This document shows, in pieces, positions 10,027 through 49,906 of a stretch of DNA of 64,000 bases; within the stretch, counting starts at the first letter, position 1; each line of letters begins with the position of its first letter. A program made the translations under genes and the position numbers. This DNA is from Sphingomonadaceae bacterium (GTDB taxonomy: Bacteria; Pseudomonadota; Alphaproteobacteria; Sphingomonadales; Sphingomonadaceae): NCBI GenBank assembly GCA_046348665.1, contig JAXMDV010000001.1:1859797-1923796 (forward strand), read 5' to 3'. The notes under the pieces are model-generated. The model made no database searches. It was not told the origin of the DNA and was given only the letters and a program-made list of their open reading frames with translations.

Positions 10027-10105
10027 TCGTCATTGCGAGCGCAGCGAAGCAATCCAGGGCGGTTTGCGCTGCCATCTGGATTGCTTCGCTGCGCTCGCAA
10101 TGACG
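10027..10105. repeat. Solitary palindromic element, family B (TCGTCATTGCGAGCGCAGCGAAGCAATCCAG ... CTGGATTGCTTCGCTGCGCTCGCAATGACG)
   Basis: About 31-nt perfect inverted arms around an 18-nt loop, between convergent genes. It is the same unit as in the 49335-49906 array. Confidence 0.9.
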
Positions 10106-12196: not shown

Positions 12197-12280
12197 CGTC
12201 ACCCCGGCCTTGAGCCGGGATCCCGCTTCTTCCCCTTTACCCGCGCACAAGCGGGACCCCGGATCAGGTCCGGGGTGACG
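12197..12280. repeat. Palindromic element, family D (CGTCACCCCGGCCTTGAGCCGGGATCCCGC ... GCGGGACCCCGGATCAGGTCCGGGGTGACG), in the serC-serA spacer
   Basis: About 29-nt imperfect inverted arms, each with its own CCCGG..CCGGG sub-hairpin. Read directly. Confidence 0.8.
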
Positions 12281-13914: not shown

Positions 13915-14015
13915 TCCCTCCCGCTTGCGGGAGGGGCCAGGGGCGGGGCTGTTGCGTTACCGCGAAACCGTGCCTAACAGGCCCTCCCCCGACCCCTCCC
14001 GCAAGCGGGAGGGGA
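13915..14015. repeat. Palindromic element, family C (CCCTCCCGC-ttg-GCGGGAGGGG hairpins in inverted orientation)
   Basis: TCCCTCCCGCTTGCGGGAGGGGCCAGGGGCGGGG at 13915 pairs with GCCCTCCCCCGACCCCTCCCGCAAGCGGGAGGGGA at 13981. The second arm is nearly identical to the arm at 33196-33231 (reverse complement). Confidence 0.85.
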
Positions 14016-19224: not shown

Positions 19225-19300
19225 GGGCGCTTAGCTCAGTTGGTAGAGCATCTCGTTTACACCGAGAGGGTCGGCGGTTCGAGCCCGTCAGCGCCCACCA
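19225..19300 (+). tRNA. tRNA-Val (anticodon TAC), CCA encoded
   Basis: GGGCGCT/AGCGCCC acceptor stem, GCTC..GAGC D-stem, anticodon arm TCTCG-TTTACAC-CGAGA, and T-arm GGCGG-TTCGAGC-CCGTC. 76 nt. Confidence 0.95.
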
Positions 19301-22826: not shown

Positions 22827-22843
22827 CGTCTGGTCCGCATGGG

Positions 22844-22914
22844 GCTTCGACAAGCTCAGCCTGAGCGGGATTGCACTGTGGAACCCGGTCCGCTTAGGCT
22901 GAGCTTGTCGAAGC
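22844..22914. repeat. Palindromic element, family A (GCTTCGACAAGCTCAGCCTGAGCGG ... CCGCTTAGGCTGAGCTTGTCGAAGC)
   Basis: 25-nt near-perfect inverted arms around a 21-nt loop, immediately after the lysA stop. Confidence 0.9.
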
Positions 22915-22939
22915 CCGGCCGCCAGCCTAGTTTTCCAGC

Positions 22940-33195: not shown

Positions 33196-33310
33196 TTCCC
33201 CTCCCGCTGGCGGGAGGGGTCGGGGGAGGGCTTGTTCCCTCCCCTTTGCTTTTGTACGTCTTGCGCTAAGACATTCCCTTCCCCAGCCCCTCCCGCAGGC
33301 GGGAGGGGAG
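33196..33310. repeat. Palindromic element, family C (CCCCTCCCGC-tgg-GCGGGAGGGG ... CCCCTCCCGC-agg-GCGGGAGGGG)
   Basis: TTCCCCTCCCGCTGGCGGGAGGGGTCGGGGGAGGGC at 33196 versus CCCTTCCCCAGCCCCTCCCGCAGGCGGGAGGGGAG at 33276. Same family as 13915-14015. Confidence 0.85.
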
Positions 33311-37309: not shown

Positions 37310-37406
37310 CCGCTCATCATGAGCTTGTCGAAGGATTGTTGTAGTCACCGGCTTTGCGCTTGGGCCAAAGTGCAAAACGGCCCTTCGACAGGCTCAGGGT
37401 GAACGG
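37310..37406. repeat. Palindromic element, family A (CCGCTCATCATGAGCTTGTCGAAGG ... CCTTCGACAGGCTCAGGGTGAACGG)
   Basis: Inverted arms with the same TGAGCTTGTCGAAG / CTTCGACA(A/G)GCTCA core as at 1813 and 22844. It lies between DUF983 and SURF1. Confidence 0.85.
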
Positions 37407-37420
37407 AACCGGAGAACGAA

Positions 37421-38011
37421 GTGCGGAATTTAGGGCGTATCCCTGTTTTGCCGACGCTGCTGGTGCTTGCGGCAGTGGCCATGATGGTGCGATTGGGTTT
37501 CTGGCAGCTTGACCGGTTGCATCAGAAAGAGGCGTTGCTACGCACCTATTCGGCCAATCTGCATCAAGAGGCTGAGGCGATCGTATTACTCGGGAGCCCC
37601 TTCATACGCCGGGACAACTGGTATCGGCGTGTCCATCTTCTGTGCCGAGGGAAGGGGCTGACTGAACCCAGGGCCGGGCGCAACGCAAACGGCGAGGCCG
37701 GGTGGGCGCATTGGGCCAAGTGTTGGTTTGGCGATATCCCGGCCATCGTTGTCAATGTAGGCTGGTCATCCTCTCCCAATCCCGTTCAATTCATTGATTC
37801 GGAAATCGACGGAACAATTGCACCCGATGACATGGTCGTGGCCCGTGTGGTGGCCGACAGGCCATTGCCTGGCCTTCTGCCGAGCGCCCGGCCCGACCCG
37901 GCCGACATTCCCAACAACCACCTGTCCTATGCGGTGCAATGGTTCCTGTTCGCCGCCACCGCGCTGGTGATCTATGCGCTGGCGCTGCGCAAGCGGGTGG
38001 GCCGCGCATAG
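37421..38011 (+). CDS. SURF1 family cytochrome oxidase assembly protein (short, 196 aa)
   Basis: GTG start. N-terminal TM segment plus RLGFWQLDRLHQKEALL; C-terminal NNHLSYAVQWFLFAATALVIY. Confidence 0.8.
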   Translation: MRNLGRIPVLPTLLVLAAVAMMVRLGFWQLDRLHQKEALLRTYSANLHQEAEAIVLLGSPFIRRDNWYRRVHLLCRGKGLTEPRAGRNANGEAGWAHWAKCWFGDIPAIVVNVGWSSSPNPVQFIDSEIDGTIAPDDMVVARVVADRPLPGLLPSARPDPADIPNNHLSYAVQWFLFAATALVIYALALRKRVGRA

Positions 38012-38081
38012 CAATTTTCGATAAGCGCGCACCTTCGCGCAGGGTTTTCAATTGCGCGCGGTGCGGCTAACGCGCGGGCCG

Positions 38082-39482
38082 ATGGAATATGTCTCCACCC
38101 GTGGCAGCGCTCCGGCGCTGGACTTCGAAGGCGCGACGCTGGCGGGCCTCGCCAGCGACGGCGGGCTCTATGTGCCGCGCGAATGGCCGCGCTTCTCGAA
38201 AGAGGAGATCGCGGCGCTGGCGGGTCTGCCCTATCCCGAACTGGCCGCGCGGATCATGGCGCCGTTCGTGGGCAGCAGCCTGAGCCACGAGCGCCTGCTC
38301 GAACTTACCACCCAGGCCTATGGCCGCTTCGCGCACAAGGCGGTGACCCCGCTCAGGCAGCTGGATGAGCAGCAGTGGCTGCTCGAGCTGTTCCACGGCC
38401 CGACCCTGGCCTTCAAGGACGTGGCCTTGCAGATGCTGGGGCTGCTGTTCGAGGAGTTCCTGGGACGCGGCGGCGATCCGTTGACGATCGTCGGGGCAAC
38501 TTCGGGTGATACCGGATCGGCGGCGATCGATGCGGTGGCGGGCCGCGCGCGGATCGAGATCTTCATGCTCCATCCCAAGGGGCGGGTCAGCGATGTCCAG
38601 CGCCGGCAGATGACCACGGTGCTGGCGCCCAATGTCCACAACATCGCGATCGATGGCACCTTCGACGATGCCCAGGCGATGGTGAAGCGGATGTTCAATG
38701 ACCCGGCGATGACCGGACGCTTCGCGATCGGCGCGGTCAATTCAATCAACTGGGCGCGGCTGATGGCGCAGGTGGTCTATTACTTCGCCGCCGCCCTGCA
38801 ACTGGGCGCGCCGCACCGCGAGGTGGCCTTCGCCGTGCCGACCGGCAACTTCGGCGATGTCTTCGCCGGCTATGTCGCCGCCCAGATGGGGCTGCCGGTG
38901 GCGCGGCTGATCGTCGCCACCAATGTCAACGACATCCTTCACCGGGCGCTGACCAGCGGTGACTATTCCGCCGGAACGGTGACGCCGACCGCCGCGCCTT
39001 CGATGGATATCCAGGTTTCCTCGAACTTCGAGCGCCTGCTGTTCGACCTTGGCGGGCGCGATGGCGCTGCGCTGGCGGCGCAGATGGCGGGGTTCGAGGC
39101 GACGAAGGCGATGCAGCTTACCAACCTCCAGCGCGAAGGCGCGGCCCGGCTGTTTTCCAGCGCGCGCGCCGATGCCGCCGACATGGCAAGGGCGATCCGC
39201 TGGGCGCATGAAAACACCGGCGAGCTGCTCGATCCGCATACCGCGATCGGCCTGCATGCCGCGCGGACCGCCGAGCTGCCGCGCGAGGTGCCGGTGGTTA
39301 CGCTGGCCACCGCGCACCCGGCTAAGTTCCGCGATGCGGTCGAACGCGCCACCGGCCAGCGCCCCAGCCTGCCAAGCCGGATCGGCGACCTGTTCGAGCG
39401 CGAGGAACGTCTGGTGGAACTGCCGGGCGACTATGCGGCGATCGCCGGCCATGTCGCGGCGCATGCGGTGCCGCGTGGCTGA
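38082..39482 (+). CDS. thrC: Threonine synthase
   Basis: MEYVSTRGSAPALDFEGATLAGLASDGGLYVP, FHGPTLAFKDVALQ (PLP lysine), ATSGDTGSAA. Confidence 0.93.
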   Translation: MEYVSTRGSAPALDFEGATLAGLASDGGLYVPREWPRFSKEEIAALAGLPYPELAARIMAPFVGSSLSHERLLELTTQAYGRFAHKAVTPLRQLDEQQWLLELFHGPTLAFKDVALQMLGLLFEEFLGRGGDPLTIVGATSGDTGSAAIDAVAGRARIEIFMLHPKGRVSDVQRRQMTTVLAPNVHNIAIDGTFDDAQAMVKRMFNDPAMTGRFAIGAVNSINWARLMAQVVYYFAAALQLGAPHREVAFAVPTGNFGDVFAGYVAAQMGLPVARLIVATNVNDILHRALTSGDYSAGTVTPTAAPSMDIQVSSNFERLLFDLGGRDGAALAAQMAGFEATKAMQLTNLQREGAARLFSSARADAADMARAIRWAHENTGELLDPHTAIGLHAARTAELPREVPVVTLATAHPAKFRDAVERATGQRPSLPSRIGDLFEREERLVELPGDYAAIAGHVAAHAVPRG

Positions 39483-40497
39483 GCTGGTTCTGCCGCCGGT
39501 TGTACTGACCGGCGAGGGCTGGGCGGACTATGGCCTGGTCGACAGCGGTCATGGCCGCAAGTACGAGCGGTATGGCCCCTACAGCTTCATCCGCCCCGAA
39601 CCGCAGGCGATGTGGACCCCGCGGCATGAGCGCTGGCCGGCGGATGGCGAGTTCATTCCGGGCTCCGACGAAGACGGCGGCGGCCGCTGGGCCTATGGCA
39701 GCCGCGCGGTTCCGCAAGAGGGCTGGCCGCTCAGCCGCGGCGAGTGCCGCTTTACCGCGCAGTGCACCCCATTCCGCCACCTTGGCTTCTTTCCCGACAT
39801 GGCCCCCGTGTGGGACTGGATGGCGGAGCAATTCCTCCCCGGCACGGCGAGGGGGACCAGCGCAGCTGGTGGAGGGGCACGCGCAGGTGTTCCCGACGCC
39901 GCTGGCCAGCACGCTCAGGATCACTCGCCCGTACCCCTCCACCATCCCGCGGATGGTTCCCCTCCCCGTGCCGGGGAGGAATTCTCTTCCCTCAATCTGT
40001 TCGGCTATACCGGGGTCGGAACCCAGGCGCTTTCCGCCTTCGGGCCGGTCACCCATGTCGATGCCAGCAAGAAGTCCGTCGCCCAGGCCCGCGCCAATGC
40101 CGAACTGGCCGGGATCGCCGACCGCCCGGTGCGCTGGATCGTCGATGATGCCGCCAAGTTCACCGCGCGAGAGGTGCGGCGCGGCAAGCGCTATGACGGG
40201 ATCATCCTCGACCCGCCCAAGTTCGGGCGCGGCCCCGAAGGCGAGGTCTGGCGGCTGGAAGAAGGCCTGCCCCGCCTGCTGGCCGATTGCCGTGCCCTGC
40301 TTGATGCCGACAGCCGCTTTCTGTTCCTCACGGTCTATGCGGTCAGGATGTCATCTCTCGCATTGATCGGACTAATGGACGAGATTTTCCGCGACCTTCC
40401 CGGCAAATTGGAGCATGGCGACCTGGCGGTGCGCGAAGAAGGGCCTGGCGGGCGCCTGCTTCCAACCGCGATCTTTGCACGCTGGAGCAATGACTGA
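39463..40497 (+). CDS. Class I SAM-dependent (rRNA large-subunit-type) methyltransferase carrying an in-frame repeat insertion
   Basis: ATG 39463 (alternative GTG 39475: VAELVLPPVVLTGEGWADYGLVDSGHGRKYERYG). Motifs: LNLFGYTGVGT, VTHVDASKKSV, YDGIILDPPKFGRGPEGEVW. Confidence 0.8.
   Translation: MRCRVAELVLPPVVLTGEGWADYGLVDSGHGRKYERYGPYSFIRPEPQAMWTPRHERWPADGEFIPGSDEDGGGRWAYGSRAVPQEGWPLSRGECRFTAQCTPFRHLGFFPDMAPVWDWMAEQFLPGTARGTSAAGGGARAGVPDAAGQHAQDHSPVPLHHPADGSPPRAGEEFSSLNLFGYTGVGTQALSAFGPVTHVDASKKSVAQARANAELAGIADRPVRWIVDDAAKFTAREVRRGKRYDGIILDPPKFGRGPEGEVWRLEEGLPRLLADCRALLDADSRFLFLTVYAVRMSSLALIGLMDEIFRDLPGKLEHGDLAVREEGPGGRLLPTAIFARWSND
39830..39983. mobile_element. 154-nt near-perfect palindromic REP/MITE-like element embedded in-frame in the methyltransferase CDS (family E)
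   Basis: AATTCCTCCCCGGCACGG at 39830-39847 is exactly reverse-complemented at 39966-39983, and the two ~77-nt halves pair at roughly 80% by eye. The insert is equivalent to 51 codons with no stop in the host frame. Confidence 0.75.
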
Positions 40498-40500
40498 GCG

Positions 40501-40872
40501 ATGGCCGACAGCCTGATCCTTGAAGTCGCCGATTTCGAGCATGACGTCCTGACCGGGATCTATTCGGAAGAGACTGGCCGGCCGCAGCCGCTGCGCTTCA
40601 CCATCACGGTGCAGCTGAAACCCCGGCCCCGCTACGAGCCGGACACGCCGCTCGAAGCCAGCAAGAACTACATGGACCTCAAGTTCGCCGCTTCGCAGGC
40701 GCTGCCGCAGGGCGTGCATTTCAAGCTGATCGAGGCGGTCGCCGAACATGTCTGCGACACGCTGTTCGTTCAGGACGAGCGGGTCGAGGTGGTGACCGTC
40801 AGGATCATCAAGCTGGCGATCAGCGAGAAAGGTGAGCAGATCGGCATGACCCTGCGGCGCGAGCGGCGCTGA
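40501..40872 (+). CDS. folB: Dihydroneopterin aldolase family protein
   Basis: 123 aa: LILEVADFEHDVLTGIYSEETGRPQPLRFTITV, LIEAVAEHVCDTLF. Confidence 0.75.
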   Translation: MADSLILEVADFEHDVLTGIYSEETGRPQPLRFTITVQLKPRPRYEPDTPLEASKNYMDLKFAASQALPQGVHFKLIEAVAEHVCDTLFVQDERVEVVTVRIIKLAISEKGEQIGMTLRRERR

Positions 40873-41213
40873 TGGCACTGGTGTGCGTCACCGGGCTGCC
40901 AGCGGCCCCGCTCGATGCCGCCGCCCTGTTTCACGCCGAATGGCTGCCGCGAATCCGCCAGCAGCTTGCCGTGTCGGACGCGGAAAGCACGGTGCTTGCT
41001 TTCCCGCCCGCCGATCACGGCCATCGCGGCTGGCGGCTTGCGGCGGTGCAGGAACTGGCCCGCGCGCTGGCCCCGCGGCGGCTGAATGCGCTGGTTGGCG
41101 ACAGCGAGGCGGGGCTTGCCGCGGGCCTGGCGCTGCTTGACAATTGTCAAGGCATCACCGGCCAGCTTCTGGCAATCGACGAAGCCGGAATGCTACAAGA
41201 CGACCAGAAATGA
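40872..41213 (+). CDS. Hypothetical protein, reduced SDR/Rossmann-like relic (113 aa)
   Basis: ALVCVTG at the N-terminus, then [15 protein letters not shown] and [12 protein letters not shown], which resemble SDR C-terminal motifs. The gene is translationally coupled on both sides (ATGA overlaps). Confidence 0.5.
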
Positions 41214-42217
41214 CCACCGACCACCGCCCCCTGGTTGACCAGTTCAATCGCCGGATCACCTATCTGCGCCTGTCGGTGACGGATCGCTGCGACCTGCGCT
41301 GCACCTATTGCATGCCCGAGCGGCAGATCTTCCTGCCGCGCAAGGAAGTGCTCAGCCTCGAGGAACTGCACCGCCTGGCGCTGGGCTTTATCGAGCGGGG
41401 GATCAACCGGATCCGGCTGACCGGCGGGGAACCGCTGGTGCGGCGCGACATGATCGAACTGGTCCGCGCGCTGGGCCGCAAGCTGGGCGATGGGCTCGAG
41501 GAACTGACGCTCACCACCAATGCCACCCAGCTCGCGCAGCATGCCGCCGATCTCTATGGAGCCGGGGTGCGGCGGGTCAACGTCTCGCTCGACACGCTCG
41601 ACCGCGAGAAGTTCGCGGCCCTTTCCCGGCGCGACAGCCTGCCGCTGGTGCTTGAGGGGATCGCCGCGGCGCGCGAAGCGGGGCTGGCGGTCAAGCTCAA
41701 CACCGTGGCGCTGAAGGGCGTGAACGAAGGCGAAATCCCCACCCTCGTCGAATGGGCGCACGGGCAGGGGATGGAACTGACCCTGATCGAGGTCATGCCG
41801 CTGGGTGAAGTCGAAGGCGATCGGTTCGATCAGTACCTGCCGCTCAGCCAGGTGCGCGCCGACCTGGAACAGCGCTATACGCTCACCGCCAGCCAGCATC
41901 GCAGCGGCGGTCCGGCACGCTATGTCGATGTCAAGGAAACCGGCGGGCGGCTGGGCCTCATCACCCCGCTTACCGGCAATTTCTGCGACGGCTGCAATCG
42001 GGTTCGAGTCACCGCCACGGGCCAGATGTATCCGTGCCTGGGCGGCATGGAACAGATCGACCTGCGCGCCGCGATGCGGGGCGATGATCCCGATTCCGCC
42101 CTGTCCGAAGCGCTTGACCGGGCGATGCGGATCAAGCCGGCGCGGCACAATTTCGAAATTGACCGGCCGGGCGCCGCACCGGCGCTGGCCCGGCACATGT
42201 CGGCAACCGGCGGATGA
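41210..42217 (+). CDS. moaA: GTP 3',8-cyclase (molybdenum cofactor biosynthesis protein A)
   Basis: Start at [36 protein letters not shown] (radical-SAM CxxxCxxC). LTGGEPL, and the C-terminal [14 protein letters not shown]. Confidence 0.93.
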
Positions 42218-42453
42218 ACGCCAGGCTGGTGTTCCTGGGCCGGCTCGAAGACCTTGCCGGGTCGGGCGAGCGCACGGTTGTGGCGGGGCCGCTGGGCACT
42301 GTGCTGGCCGCGTTGGAGCCGGAACTGGCCGCTGCCCTTCAGGGTGACCGGGTGCGCATGGCGCTCAACGGTGATCTGGTGACCGATCCCGGCGCAATCG
42401 TGCTGAGCGAAGGCGACGAGCTGGCCTTTCTTCCCCCCGTCAGCGGCGGCTGA
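42214..42453 (+). CDS. moaD: Molybdopterin synthase sulfur carrier subunit
   Basis: 79 aa ending ...FLPPVSGG (C-terminal Gly-Gly). It overlaps the moaA stop. Confidence 0.85.
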
Positions 42454-42454
42454 C

Positions 42455-42898
42455 TTGGCCGAGGTCCGCCTGCTTGATGCGCCGTTCGATCCGGCGGCAG
42501 AGCTGGACGCCTTTGCCGGGGCGCATGGCGCGGCCGGCGGCATCGCCAGCTTCCTCGGTCAGGTGCGGACCGGTGGGGGCGTCGAATGCCTCGAGCTGCG
42601 CCACTATGGCCCGCTGACCCTGCCGGGGATGCAGGAGCTGGCGCAGGCGGCCGAGGAGCGCTGGACGCTGGAGGGGCTGCTCATCATCCACCGCACCGGG
42701 CAGATGGCGCCGGGCGATCCGATCGTCCTCGTCGCGGCCGCGGCCCGGCATCGCCGCGATGCAATCGCCGCGATCGATTTCGCGATGGATCACCTGAAAA
42801 GCCGGTCGTGGTTCTGGAAGCGCGAACGGCGCGGCGGCGTATGGAACTGGATCGAGCCGCGCGAGCAGGACTATGCCGATCTGACGCGCTGGGATTAA
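42455..42898 (+). CDS. moaE: Molybdopterin synthase catalytic subunit
   Basis: TTG start 1 nt after the moaD stop. Motifs: GAAGGIASFLGQVR, IIHRTGQMAPGDPIVLVAAAARHRRDA, FWKRE. Confidence 0.9.
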   Translation: MAEVRLLDAPFDPAAELDAFAGAHGAAGGIASFLGQVRTGGGVECLELRHYGPLTLPGMQELAQAAEERWTLEGLLIIHRTGQMAPGDPIVLVAAAARHRRDAIAAIDFAMDHLKSRSWFWKRERRGGVWNWIEPREQDYADLTRWD

Positions 42899-49280: not shown

Positions 49281-49334
49281 CGCCGCCCCGCTAGCCGCGC
49301 GGACGGCGCACGGCAAGGGGACAACCCCGCCGCT

Positions 49335-49906
49335 TCGTCATTGCGAGCGTAGCGAAGCAATCCAGACCGCAGCGCTGAACCGCCTCTGGATTGCTTCGCT
49401 ACGCTCGCAATGACGAAAGGTGGTGCCGGGGGAAGCACGCATCACCACCCCAACCTCGTCATTGCGAGGGGCGCAGCCCCGCGGCAATCCAGGAGGCGGC
49501 ACTGCGCGGCCTCTGGATTGCTTCGCTGCGCTCGCAATGACGAAGGGTGGTGGATTGGGAAAACCCGCAGCCCCCCCCCACCTCGTCATTGCGAGGGGCG
49601 CAGCCCCGCGGCAATCCAGACGGCGGCGCGCTCGGCCCCTGGATTGCTTCGCTACGCTCGCAATGACGAAGGGTGGTGCCGGGGGAAGCCCGCATCACCC
49701 CCCATCTCGTCATTGCGAGGGGCGCAGCCCCGCGGCAATCCAGGAGGCGGTGCCACACGGCGCCTGGATTGCTTCGCTGCGCTCGCAATGACGAAGGGTG
49801 GTGGAGGAAACCCGCAGCCACCCCCCCACCTCGTCATTGCGAGGGGCAAGGCCCCGCGGCAATCCAGGAGGCGGCACTGCGCGGCTTCTGGTCGTTCGCA
49901 AAGACG
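49335..49906. repeat. Tandem array of five ~121-127-nt hairpin units (family B) with alternating linkers; not a CRISPR
   Basis: Unit starts (TCGTCATTGCGAG) are at 49335, 49456, 49583, 49707 and 49831. Each unit has a CAATCCAG..CTGGATTG hairpin ending in CGCTCGCAATGACGA. Linkers alternate between GGTGGTGCCGGGGGAAGC.CGCATCACC and GGTGGTGGA..GGAAAACCCGCAGCC. The last unit is decayed. Confidence 0.9.

Follow-up and report, generated by a model that had tools for sequence, protein, structure and literature searches.

A palindromic doublet resembling repetitive extragenic palindromes, in frame in the interdomain linker of a sphingomonad methyltransferase gene

Introduction

In a 64,000-nucleotide stretch of a Sphingomonadaceae genome (assembly GCA_046348665.1, contig JAXMDV010000001.1, positions 1,859,797 to 1,923,796; hereafter, the window, with all coordinates counted from its first letter), a palindromic element at 39830-39983 lies inside the gene of a predicted S-adenosylmethionine (SAM)-dependent methyltransferase. 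Comparison of this element with its genic and extragenic relatives makes it likely that a dispersed, normally extragenic dimer of the repetitive extragenic palindrome (REP) type entered the linker between the two domains of the methyltransferase, replaced approximately 21 of the 36 nt of that linker and left the reading frame open. If so, selfish palindromes inside working proteins are not peculiar to the reduced genomes of Rickettsia but are routine in GC-rich, free-living alphaproteobacteria.

Results

Structure of the element

The element was characterised by palindrome search, folding and alignment to genic and extragenic copies. An earlier reading of the sequence, here called the original prediction, had described it as a palindrome with 18-nt termini, halves that pair at about 80% and complementary inner boxes, and each of these properties was borne out. 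The 18-mer AATTCCTCCCCGGCACGG occurs in exactly two places in the window, 39830-39847 on the plus strand and 39966-39983 on the minus strand (shuffled sequences average 0.19 matches); the 30-nt outer arms, 39830-39859 and 39954-39983, are 93% complementary; and, in an alignment of 156 columns, the element matches its reverse complement at 78%. The inner palindrome spans 39867-39944, and the boxes GGTGGAGGGG and CCCCTCCACC are present at 39868-39877 and 39934-39943. Comparison with other copies sets the bounds of the element proper at 39831-39982, from ATTCC to GGAAT, with a length of 152-154 nt. Folding, which had been proposed as a check, supports the palindrome as well: the predicted RNA fold has an energy of −116.9 kcal/mol (z = −10.6; 0 of 200 shuffles equally good), and the single-stranded DNA fold one of −60.6 kcal/mol (z = −8.6), equalled by no shuffle. 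The GC content of the element is 71% (66.6% in the window as a whole), and five of its six frames are free of stop codons. Accordingly, an open frame requires only that the net length be divisible by three, so that the predicted absence of a stop in the host frame is correct yet unremarkable.

Each half of the element contains an outer and an inner hairpin. On the left, the outer hairpin CCTCCCC-GGCAC-GGCGAGG (39834-39852, plus strand), which departs by a single mismatch from the family consensus GGGGAGG derived from the copies L004, L009, L036 and L010, is followed by the inner hairpin ACC-AGC-GCA-GCT-GGT (39856-39870, plus strand), a structure supported by family-wide covariation, with a GNA triloop on the plus strand, and by the G-box GGTGGAGGGG (39868-39877, plus strand), which was part of the family search pattern. 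The central spacer of 56 nt (39878-39933) varies among family copies and is partly common to the insert of orthologue L004. On the right, the reverse complement of the G-box, CCCCTCCACC (39934-39943, plus strand), leads into the inner hairpin ACCATCC-CGC-GGATGGT (39941-39957, minus strand), which belongs to the inverted unit and has the loop GCG on the minus strand, and then into the outer hairpin CCTCCCC-GTGCC-GGGGAGG (39961-39979, plus strand), after which AATTCTCTTC follows. The repeat unit is composed of an outer hairpin CCTCCCC-N3-6-GGGGAGG, the sequence GGGACC, a stem of 7 bp closed by a GNA triloop, and GGTGGAGGGG.

From this anatomy, the element is identified as a putative head-to-head dimer of two REP-type units, comparable to REPINs (REP doublets) or bacterial interspersed mosaic elements (BIMEs), and not as a classical MITE (miniature inverted-repeat transposable element) because it comes without a target-site duplication. 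The original designation as a REP/MITE-type element thus holds in its first part and fails in its second. A search of Rfam at E-value thresholds matched the element to plant microRNA-precursor models alone, at 52 bits compared to a cut-off of 168; these are generic long-hairpin matches far under the cut-offs, and we rejected this identity.

The insertion is derived

In an alignment of 30 homologues, length variation is confined to the segment between two invariant blocks, one ending in FRHLGFFPDMAPVWDWM and the other starting with LNLFGYTGVGT. Among the 120 best homologues, 49 carry a 12-residue linker (G-E-Q-L-D-G-R-S-D-A-S-T) in this place and the other 71 carry linkers of 21-58 residues. 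The linker is short, with 12 residues, also in 2IGT, the nearest relative with a solved structure, and in approximately 65 of 75 remoter orthologues from a sample of metagenome DNA that is independent of gene calls. Because 2IGT and most orthologues carry the 12-residue linker, the short form is ancestral, and orthologues without the 51 codons that the original prediction regarded as inserted do exist. The size of the insertion, however, had been overestimated: the linker DNA measures 168 nt in the window and 36 nt in uninserted orthologues, with the replaced segment coding for L-DGRSDA, so that the net gain amounts to 132 nt or 44 codons, still in frame, and not to 153 nt or 51 codons.

The window gene shares 87.5% DNA identity with the uninserted orthologue L001, 86-90% with L002, which carries a different element, and 76-81% with L004, whereas the inserts of the window gene and L004 are 88% identical. 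Likewise, dS between these two genes is 0.23 in the insert as compared to 0.87 in the core, and therefore, the insert is younger than the divergence of the hosts or has moved between them. The insert being closer to L004 than the host gene is, together with the interleaved tree and the L131 insert described below, supports independent or lateral acquisition. A search for a recombination tract around the insert by sliding DNA identity did not discriminate because conservation of the flanks is too high in every lineage. Between the window and L004, the dN/dS of the insert is about 0.7. In the core of the gene, compared with five orthologues, dN/dS is 0.05-0.15, which indicates that the insert-bearing genes are functional and subject to purifying selection; the possibility of a pseudogene was rejected on this ground.

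The host gene and the encoded loop

The host gene, as delineated from the list of open reading frames, homology and synteny, lies on the plus strand and starts at 39463 (ATG) or at 39475 (GTG), the latter in agreement with most orthologues; its stop codon ends at 40497. The GTG, the probable start, overlaps the stop codon of thrC (GTGGCTGA, 39475-39482), and the in-frame ATG is the alternative. This overlap suggests translational coupling in a thrC-methyltransferase-folB operon, and the order of the three genes is kept in the orthologous loci. The nearest homologues are labelled Novosphingobium or Sphingomonadales, and the identical protein sequence is present on 18 contigs. As originally proposed, the product is predicted to be a SAM-dependent methyltransferase, of class I, with a Rossmann fold and a glycine-rich motif after strand β1: the uninserted orthologue P0013 matches 2IGT, an uncharacterised enzyme of A. 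tumefaciens, with E = 1.5e-74, and the AlphaFold model of the window protein aligns with 2IGT in Foldseek with a TM-score of 0.76/0.83. RlmI, RlmK/L and their kin are more distantly similar; the protein belongs to the 2IGT / RlmI-RlmK-like group, and the substrate is probably RNA. The matches to PF10672 and PF03602 are weak and all Pfam and NCBIfam matches fall under the curated cut-offs, so that no specific rRNA methyltransferase equivalog or substrate can be assigned.

The alignment and the AlphaFold secondary structure place a beta-rich N-terminal domain and a helix that ends at the insert in 39475-39829 (plus strand); the Rossmann-fold methyltransferase domain, delimited by alignment, 2IGT, AlphaFold and Foldseek, occupies 39984-40494 (plus strand) and begins with SS-LNLFGYTGVGT, that is, strand β1 and the glycine-rich SAM loop. 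In the AlphaFold model, residues 126-172 have predicted local distance difference test (pLDDT) values below 50 and lack secondary structure, and the remainder superposes on 2IGT. This low-pLDDT segment sits between the helix 114-124 and the strand 176-179 (LNLF, β1 of the Rossmann fold), in line with the loop that the original prediction had placed before the SAM-binding fold. All 10 inserts in the gene-call-independent sample are multiples of three and stop-free. We infer from these observations that translation of the insert yields a disordered surface loop, rich in Gly, Pro and Ala, which separates the N-terminal domain from β1 and would be 44 residues longer than the ancestral one, and that this loop is tolerated rather than functional. 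A hairpin of about 75 bp could form in the mRNA as well as in the single-stranded DNA, and ribosomes translating the gene would have to unwind it.

A dispersed repeat family

A peptide search with the 51-residue insert returned no matches in a word-indexed search and two weak matches in an exhaustive HMMER search. Because low complexity and short length defeat searching at the protein level, DNA patterns were used instead. The arm pattern GGGGAGGGGGACC-N7-13-GGTGGAGGGG matched more than 120 stretches in genome contigs of Sphingomonadales, Caulobacterales and Hyphomicrobiales, frequently in plus/minus pairs and in no case with this methyltransferase gene, and more than 120 stretches in viral contigs; in plasmid records of Sphingomonas and Sphingobium, element copies occupy 167 places. 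The further copies that had been predicted therefore exist, outside the window. Most of them are extragenic (116 of 127 sampled sites lie outside verified genes) and sit mainly at 3' ends, between convergent genes. Thus, a 40-kb stretch of S. parapaucimobilis (L010) holds six doublets and one single unit, with 13 outer hairpins in all and arms near-identical to those of the window element; all are intergenic, mostly between convergent genes. The copy on an S. hankookensis plasmid (H1) is likewise extragenic and located between convergent genes, and the copy in a Novosphingobium metagenome-assembled genome (MAG) begins directly after a TAA stop codon; both have the architecture of the window element and arms close to identical with its own.

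The arms show signs of structural constraint. In nearly all copies, the variable part of the arm forms a perfect mini-palindrome around a GNA triloop, for example, GCGAAGC or ATGC-GAA-GCAT; in its 7-bp stem, 99.6% of cells are paired across 37 distinct variants, with 46 double-sided changes compared to 14.6 in shuffles, and the pairing collapses when the partners are slid. A quadruplex-duplex reading of the G-rich unit was considered and set aside; that the G-rich flanks are invariant in this family sample follows from the search pattern itself. The strand with the sequence GGGGACC…GGTGGAG accepts G·T pairs, and therefore, the constraint acts on one strand, as single-stranded DNA or RNA. The inner loop is nearly always GNA (GAA, GCA, GTA or GGA) closed by C·G, in L011-L130 as well as in the window (39856-39870 and 39941-39957). 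GCGAAGC is the sequence of the exceptionally stable DNA mini-hairpin d(GCGAAGC), which would point to a role of the inner hairpin as single-stranded DNA.

Among the predicted viral and prophage contigs (IMG/VR, L213-L332, for example, L247 and L283), the unit is frequent, mostly at 60-70% GC; L247 has seven unit copies in 10.6 kb, five of which have the 3' extension GGTGGAGGGGGCGACCACAG in common. The complete unit (GCCTCCCCTGAAAGGGGAGGGGGACC-hairpin-GGTGGAGGGG) also appears as single units, often with a T-run after it, in AT-richer contigs of 43-63% GC (L013, L023, L043, L054, L067, L073 and L074 in the genome scan; L216 and L281 in the viral scan), which are labelled Selenomonadaceae, Phascolarctobacterium, Ruminococcus, Oscillospiraceae and Clostridia. 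A cross-phylum unit with 23 fixed bases is not expected by chance and could reflect either horizontal spread or mis-binning.

Turnover of inserts at the linker

Each of the 71 long-linker homologues among the nearest 120 carries an insert at this linker, and these inserts are of at least eight kinds, in two reading frames and with differing junctions. Kind A, taken together with C and D (LPGTGRGT…PLHHPADGSPPRAGEEF; the left arm is constant and the right arms vary), accounts for 28 of the 120 and is followed by kind E (RRDPGQSHSVIPAKAG…, the CGTC-1 REP of PMC3733652) with 11, kinds B (NPPPLGEVA…PPPSGLRPATSPSGGGF) and G (PPRNGEGDH…, type A DNA in the other frame) with 8 each, kind F (SPLPFRGGAGGG…PHPNPSPEGEGL, of the CCCCTCCCC…GGGGAGGGG family) with 6, kind H (PGLDPGPL…VPDQVRDDEF) with 5 and kind I (SPREGGDL…) with 2; the remaining 3 are unclassified. 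Every insert for which the DNA was retrieved folds into a single long hairpin, with energies from −60 to −120 kcal/mol. In L131, the family of the window element is read in the second frame and its left junction, CAA-CTC-G/ATCCTCCCC, is 4-5 nt away from that in the window, CA/ATTCCTCCCC; junction positions differ among the other insert types too. Deletion remnants are present in L132, P0053 and P0108. In a neighbor-joining tree from which the linker was excluded, genes with and without an insert are interleaved, and Fitch parsimony on this tree yields at least 18 changes of presence or absence and at least 42 changes of type. Multi-family turnover on this scale at a single linker appears to be previously undescribed.

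Repeats are found around the gene as well. A copy of the CCCCTCCCCTTCAGGGGAGGGG family lies at 9878-9990 of L006, in intergenic DNA between thrC and the methyltransferase gene, and another at 4335-4370 of L001, approximately 0.5 kb downstream of the methyltransferase gene and beyond folB, which suggests that the whole neighbourhood attracts repeats.

Other in-frame hosts

Eleven of the 127 sampled family sites (about 9%) are in frame in genes and flanked by Pfam domains on either side, and all of these are located in linkers or loops. The hosts are GluQRS, LigA (between HhH and BRCT), an AcrB-type transporter, a terminase (between the N- and C-terminal parts), two E2 acyltransferases (lipoyl linkers), a NIR_SIR protein, TruB (between the N- and C-terminal parts), PheS, LigD and CbiG-CobJ; the terminase copy is in the large-subunit gene of L024. 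Among the TruB orthologues of Sphingomonas and Sphingomicrobium (L107, from a Sphingomonas MAG, and P0123-P0242), almost all of the top 120 carry their insert at a single position that separates TruB_N from TruB_C_2. Most of these inserts are of the form ILPGTGRGT…PLHH…GPPPRSGED, the family and frame of the window element, several belong to unrelated repeat families, and two orthologues are insert-free; by these comparisons, the TruB linker is a second insertion hotspot. The confinement of in-frame copies to linkers and the TruB pattern favour a selective filter, with wide landing of the elements and survival in coding sequences in permissive linkers alone.

Discussion

The results translate into a scenario in which a REP-type head-to-head dimer would enter the interdomain linker and swap out about 21 nt of the ancestral 36-nt linker, with the frame staying open. 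The likeliest reason for the hotspot would be that this linker is one of the few places in coding sequences where GC-rich, nearly stop-free palindromes are harmless. Inserted alleles could then spread by homologous recombination through the conserved flanks (FRHLGFFPDMAPVWDWM and LNLFGYTGVGT).

Several observations weigh against this interpretation. The insertion is deduced from comparison and not from a known mechanism, comes without a target-site duplication, and has no associated transposase identified with it, with neither RAYT nor a parent insertion sequence (IS) having been searched for. No second copy of the family is present in the 64-kb window. The neighbor-joining tree is noisy, the numbers of events on it would be raised by recombination, and the 59% occupancy among the top 120 homologues is possibly inflated because the query itself bears an insert. 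Finally, all kinds of elements lack the same 18-21 nt or so of the ancestral linker, the segment that codes for DGRSDA.

This common missing segment is awkward for fully independent insertions and hints that a resident element was replaced or that the process is site-directed. In addition, GGATTT-AGCAGC follows both a type B element (L002) and a type E element (L007), residual terminal bases common to unrelated inserts, and the two observations together would fit new elements entering alleles that already bear a palindrome. The first alternative to weigh is that the linker is a mechanistic target, tolerance alone being insufficient for a hotspot, and that a sequence- or structure-specific process directs REP-type elements to the site of about 20 nt, or to a resident palindrome, and swaps them. 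The number of element kinds at one linker, the high turnover on the tree and the precedents of REPs being targeted by IS elements and of different REPs lying near the same site, the latter noted for Xanthomonas recB alone (PMC3733652), agree with such a process. However, the junction positions vary between events, neither a target-site duplication nor a conserved target motif was detected at the methyltransferase junction, at six other genic copies or at extragenic copies, and TruB, E2 and LigA behave alike at their own linkers, as expected under a selective filter. Given this balance, we regard a directed process as the less likely explanation, with perhaps one chance in its favour for several against. 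We hold a broader version of it as similarly tentative, namely, that a few linkers, such as those of the methyltransferase and of TruB (TruB_N/TruB_C), are preferred landing pads at which REP families enter, swap and spread between species as in-frame cassettes, with the unit recognised by conserved host or phage machinery. If that were the case, these sites would be a natural assay for the movement of REPs that lack a transposase.

It is also conceivable, and in our view rather improbable, that the element has been co-opted, either as an internal terminator, attenuator or RNA-stability barrier in the thrC-methyltransferase-folB operon or as a loop that has become functional in the enzyme. With AATTCTCTTC after it, the right outer hairpin is the sole match to a terminator-like consensus in 38000-42500, the extragenic copies are concentrated at the 3' ends of convergent genes, structural selection acts on the arm hairpin family-wide, with G·T allowed on one strand, and inserts are very common in this clade. 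Nevertheless, the nearest relatives are insert-free or carry unrelated inserts while the operon is visibly unchanged, the loop is predicted to be disordered, the insert dN/dS is about 0.7, and deletion remnants exist. Moreover, the terminator scan found one site compared to 2.7 in shuffles, so that we treat the terminator-like match as a lead and not as evidence; a scan of 38000-42500 for sigma-70-like promoters found no sites. An ancestral low-complexity linker with a coincidental palindrome, to which the long Gly/Pro-rich linkers of many homologues might seem to point, or an assembly artefact can be dismissed, given that the long linkers are of several unrelated sequence classes, that every class forms a long hairpin in the DNA and has its match in an extragenic repeat family, that 2IGT and distant orthologues carry the short linker, that the fold is far beyond chance and that 18 contigs carry the same protein.

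With regard to known systems, the comparison with Rickettsia palindromic elements (RPEs) made in the original prediction holds as an analogy. In the passages of PMC10969869 and PMC3733652 that concern them, RPEs (Ogata et al. 2000) are palindromic repeats of approximately 100-150 bp that are found in intergenic regions and in frame in unrelated housekeeping genes, keep the open reading frame intact and add a peptide thought to be on the protein surface. The window element similarly is a palindrome in frame in a functional gene, to which it adds a peptide segment. However, as far as the descriptions can be compared, RPEs belong to AT-rich, obligate intracellular Rickettsia, whereas the window element has 71% GC, two-hairpin REP units and free-living alphaproteobacterial hosts, and its family, unlike the Rickettsia-bound RPEs, also matches some Firmicutes MAGs and viral contigs. 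Given the GC content and the host range, homology to the RPE sequence families is unlikely.

A closer likeness is to the GTAG- and CGTC-tagged REPs of Di Nocera et al. 2013, small palindromes that mostly form head-to-head dimers, mostly lie by gene 3' ends and are common in alphaproteobacteria, among them S. wittichii, S. alaskensis and N. aromaticivorans (PMC3733652). That study lists in-frame REPs in the genes of TruB, E1/E2 and tRNA synthetases, with dimers that encode 20-30 residues. Hence, the novelty implied by the original prediction was only partly real: in-frame REP and RPE insertions, those in sphingomonads included, were already published (PMC3733652), and the addition made here is this unit and its hotspot. 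In the literature library that was searched, no paper with the sequence of this unit was found. The window family has the head-to-head dimers and the alphaproteobacterial range in common with CGTC REPs, and the type E insert of the orthologues (…VIPAKAG…) matches the CGTC-1 peptide (PMC3733652). The part of PMC3733652 that describes CGTC REPs gives them a CGTC (or TGTC/CCTC) tag, an 8-9-bp stem starting with A-T, a 4-5-nt loop and a CCA tail. In contrast, the unit in the window has a 7-bp stem, a 3-nt GNA loop and, compared to both CGTC and GTAG REPs, an extra outer hairpin CCTCCCC-N3-6-GGGGAGG; going by the descriptions, it is further set apart by CCTC-CACC in the place of a CGTC or GTAG tag and by arms of the form CCTCCACC-stem-GNA-stem-GGTCC. 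A related 'Y' arm in orthologues carries CCGTC…GCCA.

REPINs are REP doublets that form hairpins and are mobilised by RAYT transposases (PMC3116915, PMC3337134). Like them, the window element consists of two inverted REPs and a spacer that make one long hairpin, and it belongs to a dispersed, multi-copy family. REPINs, however, are described as extragenic, GTAG-tagged and RAYT-linked, whereas the window copy is intragenic and contains neither GTAG nor CTAC in 39830-39983. Among bacterial MITEs, in-frame fusions are known for ERIC, BOX, Correia/NEMIS and Nezha (review PMC10969869). The window element resembles MITEs in being non-autonomous, in its terminal inverted repeats (the 30-nt arms) and in occasional in-frame intragenic insertion, but no parent IS is known for it, and host sequence was replaced, not duplicated.

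For genome annotation, these findings explain many low-complexity segments of the form LPGTGRGT…PLHHPADGPPPRAGE and many length variants of conserved enzymes, and such segments mark permissive surface sites. The methyltransferase linker, where rapid turnover is confined to some 20 nt, offers a comparative system for the copying, replacement and loss of REPs without a known transposase, and it also allows a test of how a hairpin of this length in the middle of a coding sequence affects transcription or translation.

Other features of the window

The window contains eight other REP-like palindromic doublets or clusters, at 1804-1969, 10028-10105, 12197-12280, 13916-14013, 22842-22916, 33197-33309, 37310-37406 and 49333-49843. 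They belong to at least four other families, with examples such as CGTCATTGCGAGCG…CGCTCGCAATGACG, CCCTCCCGC…GCGGGAGGG-GCC-GGGG, CGTCACCCCGGCC… and CTTCGACAAGCTCAG…, and no coding-like frame spans any of them, so that the methyltransferase copy is the sole intragenic one of the nine. The tRNA gene at 19225-19297 is the only match to Rfam above the gathering score in the window.

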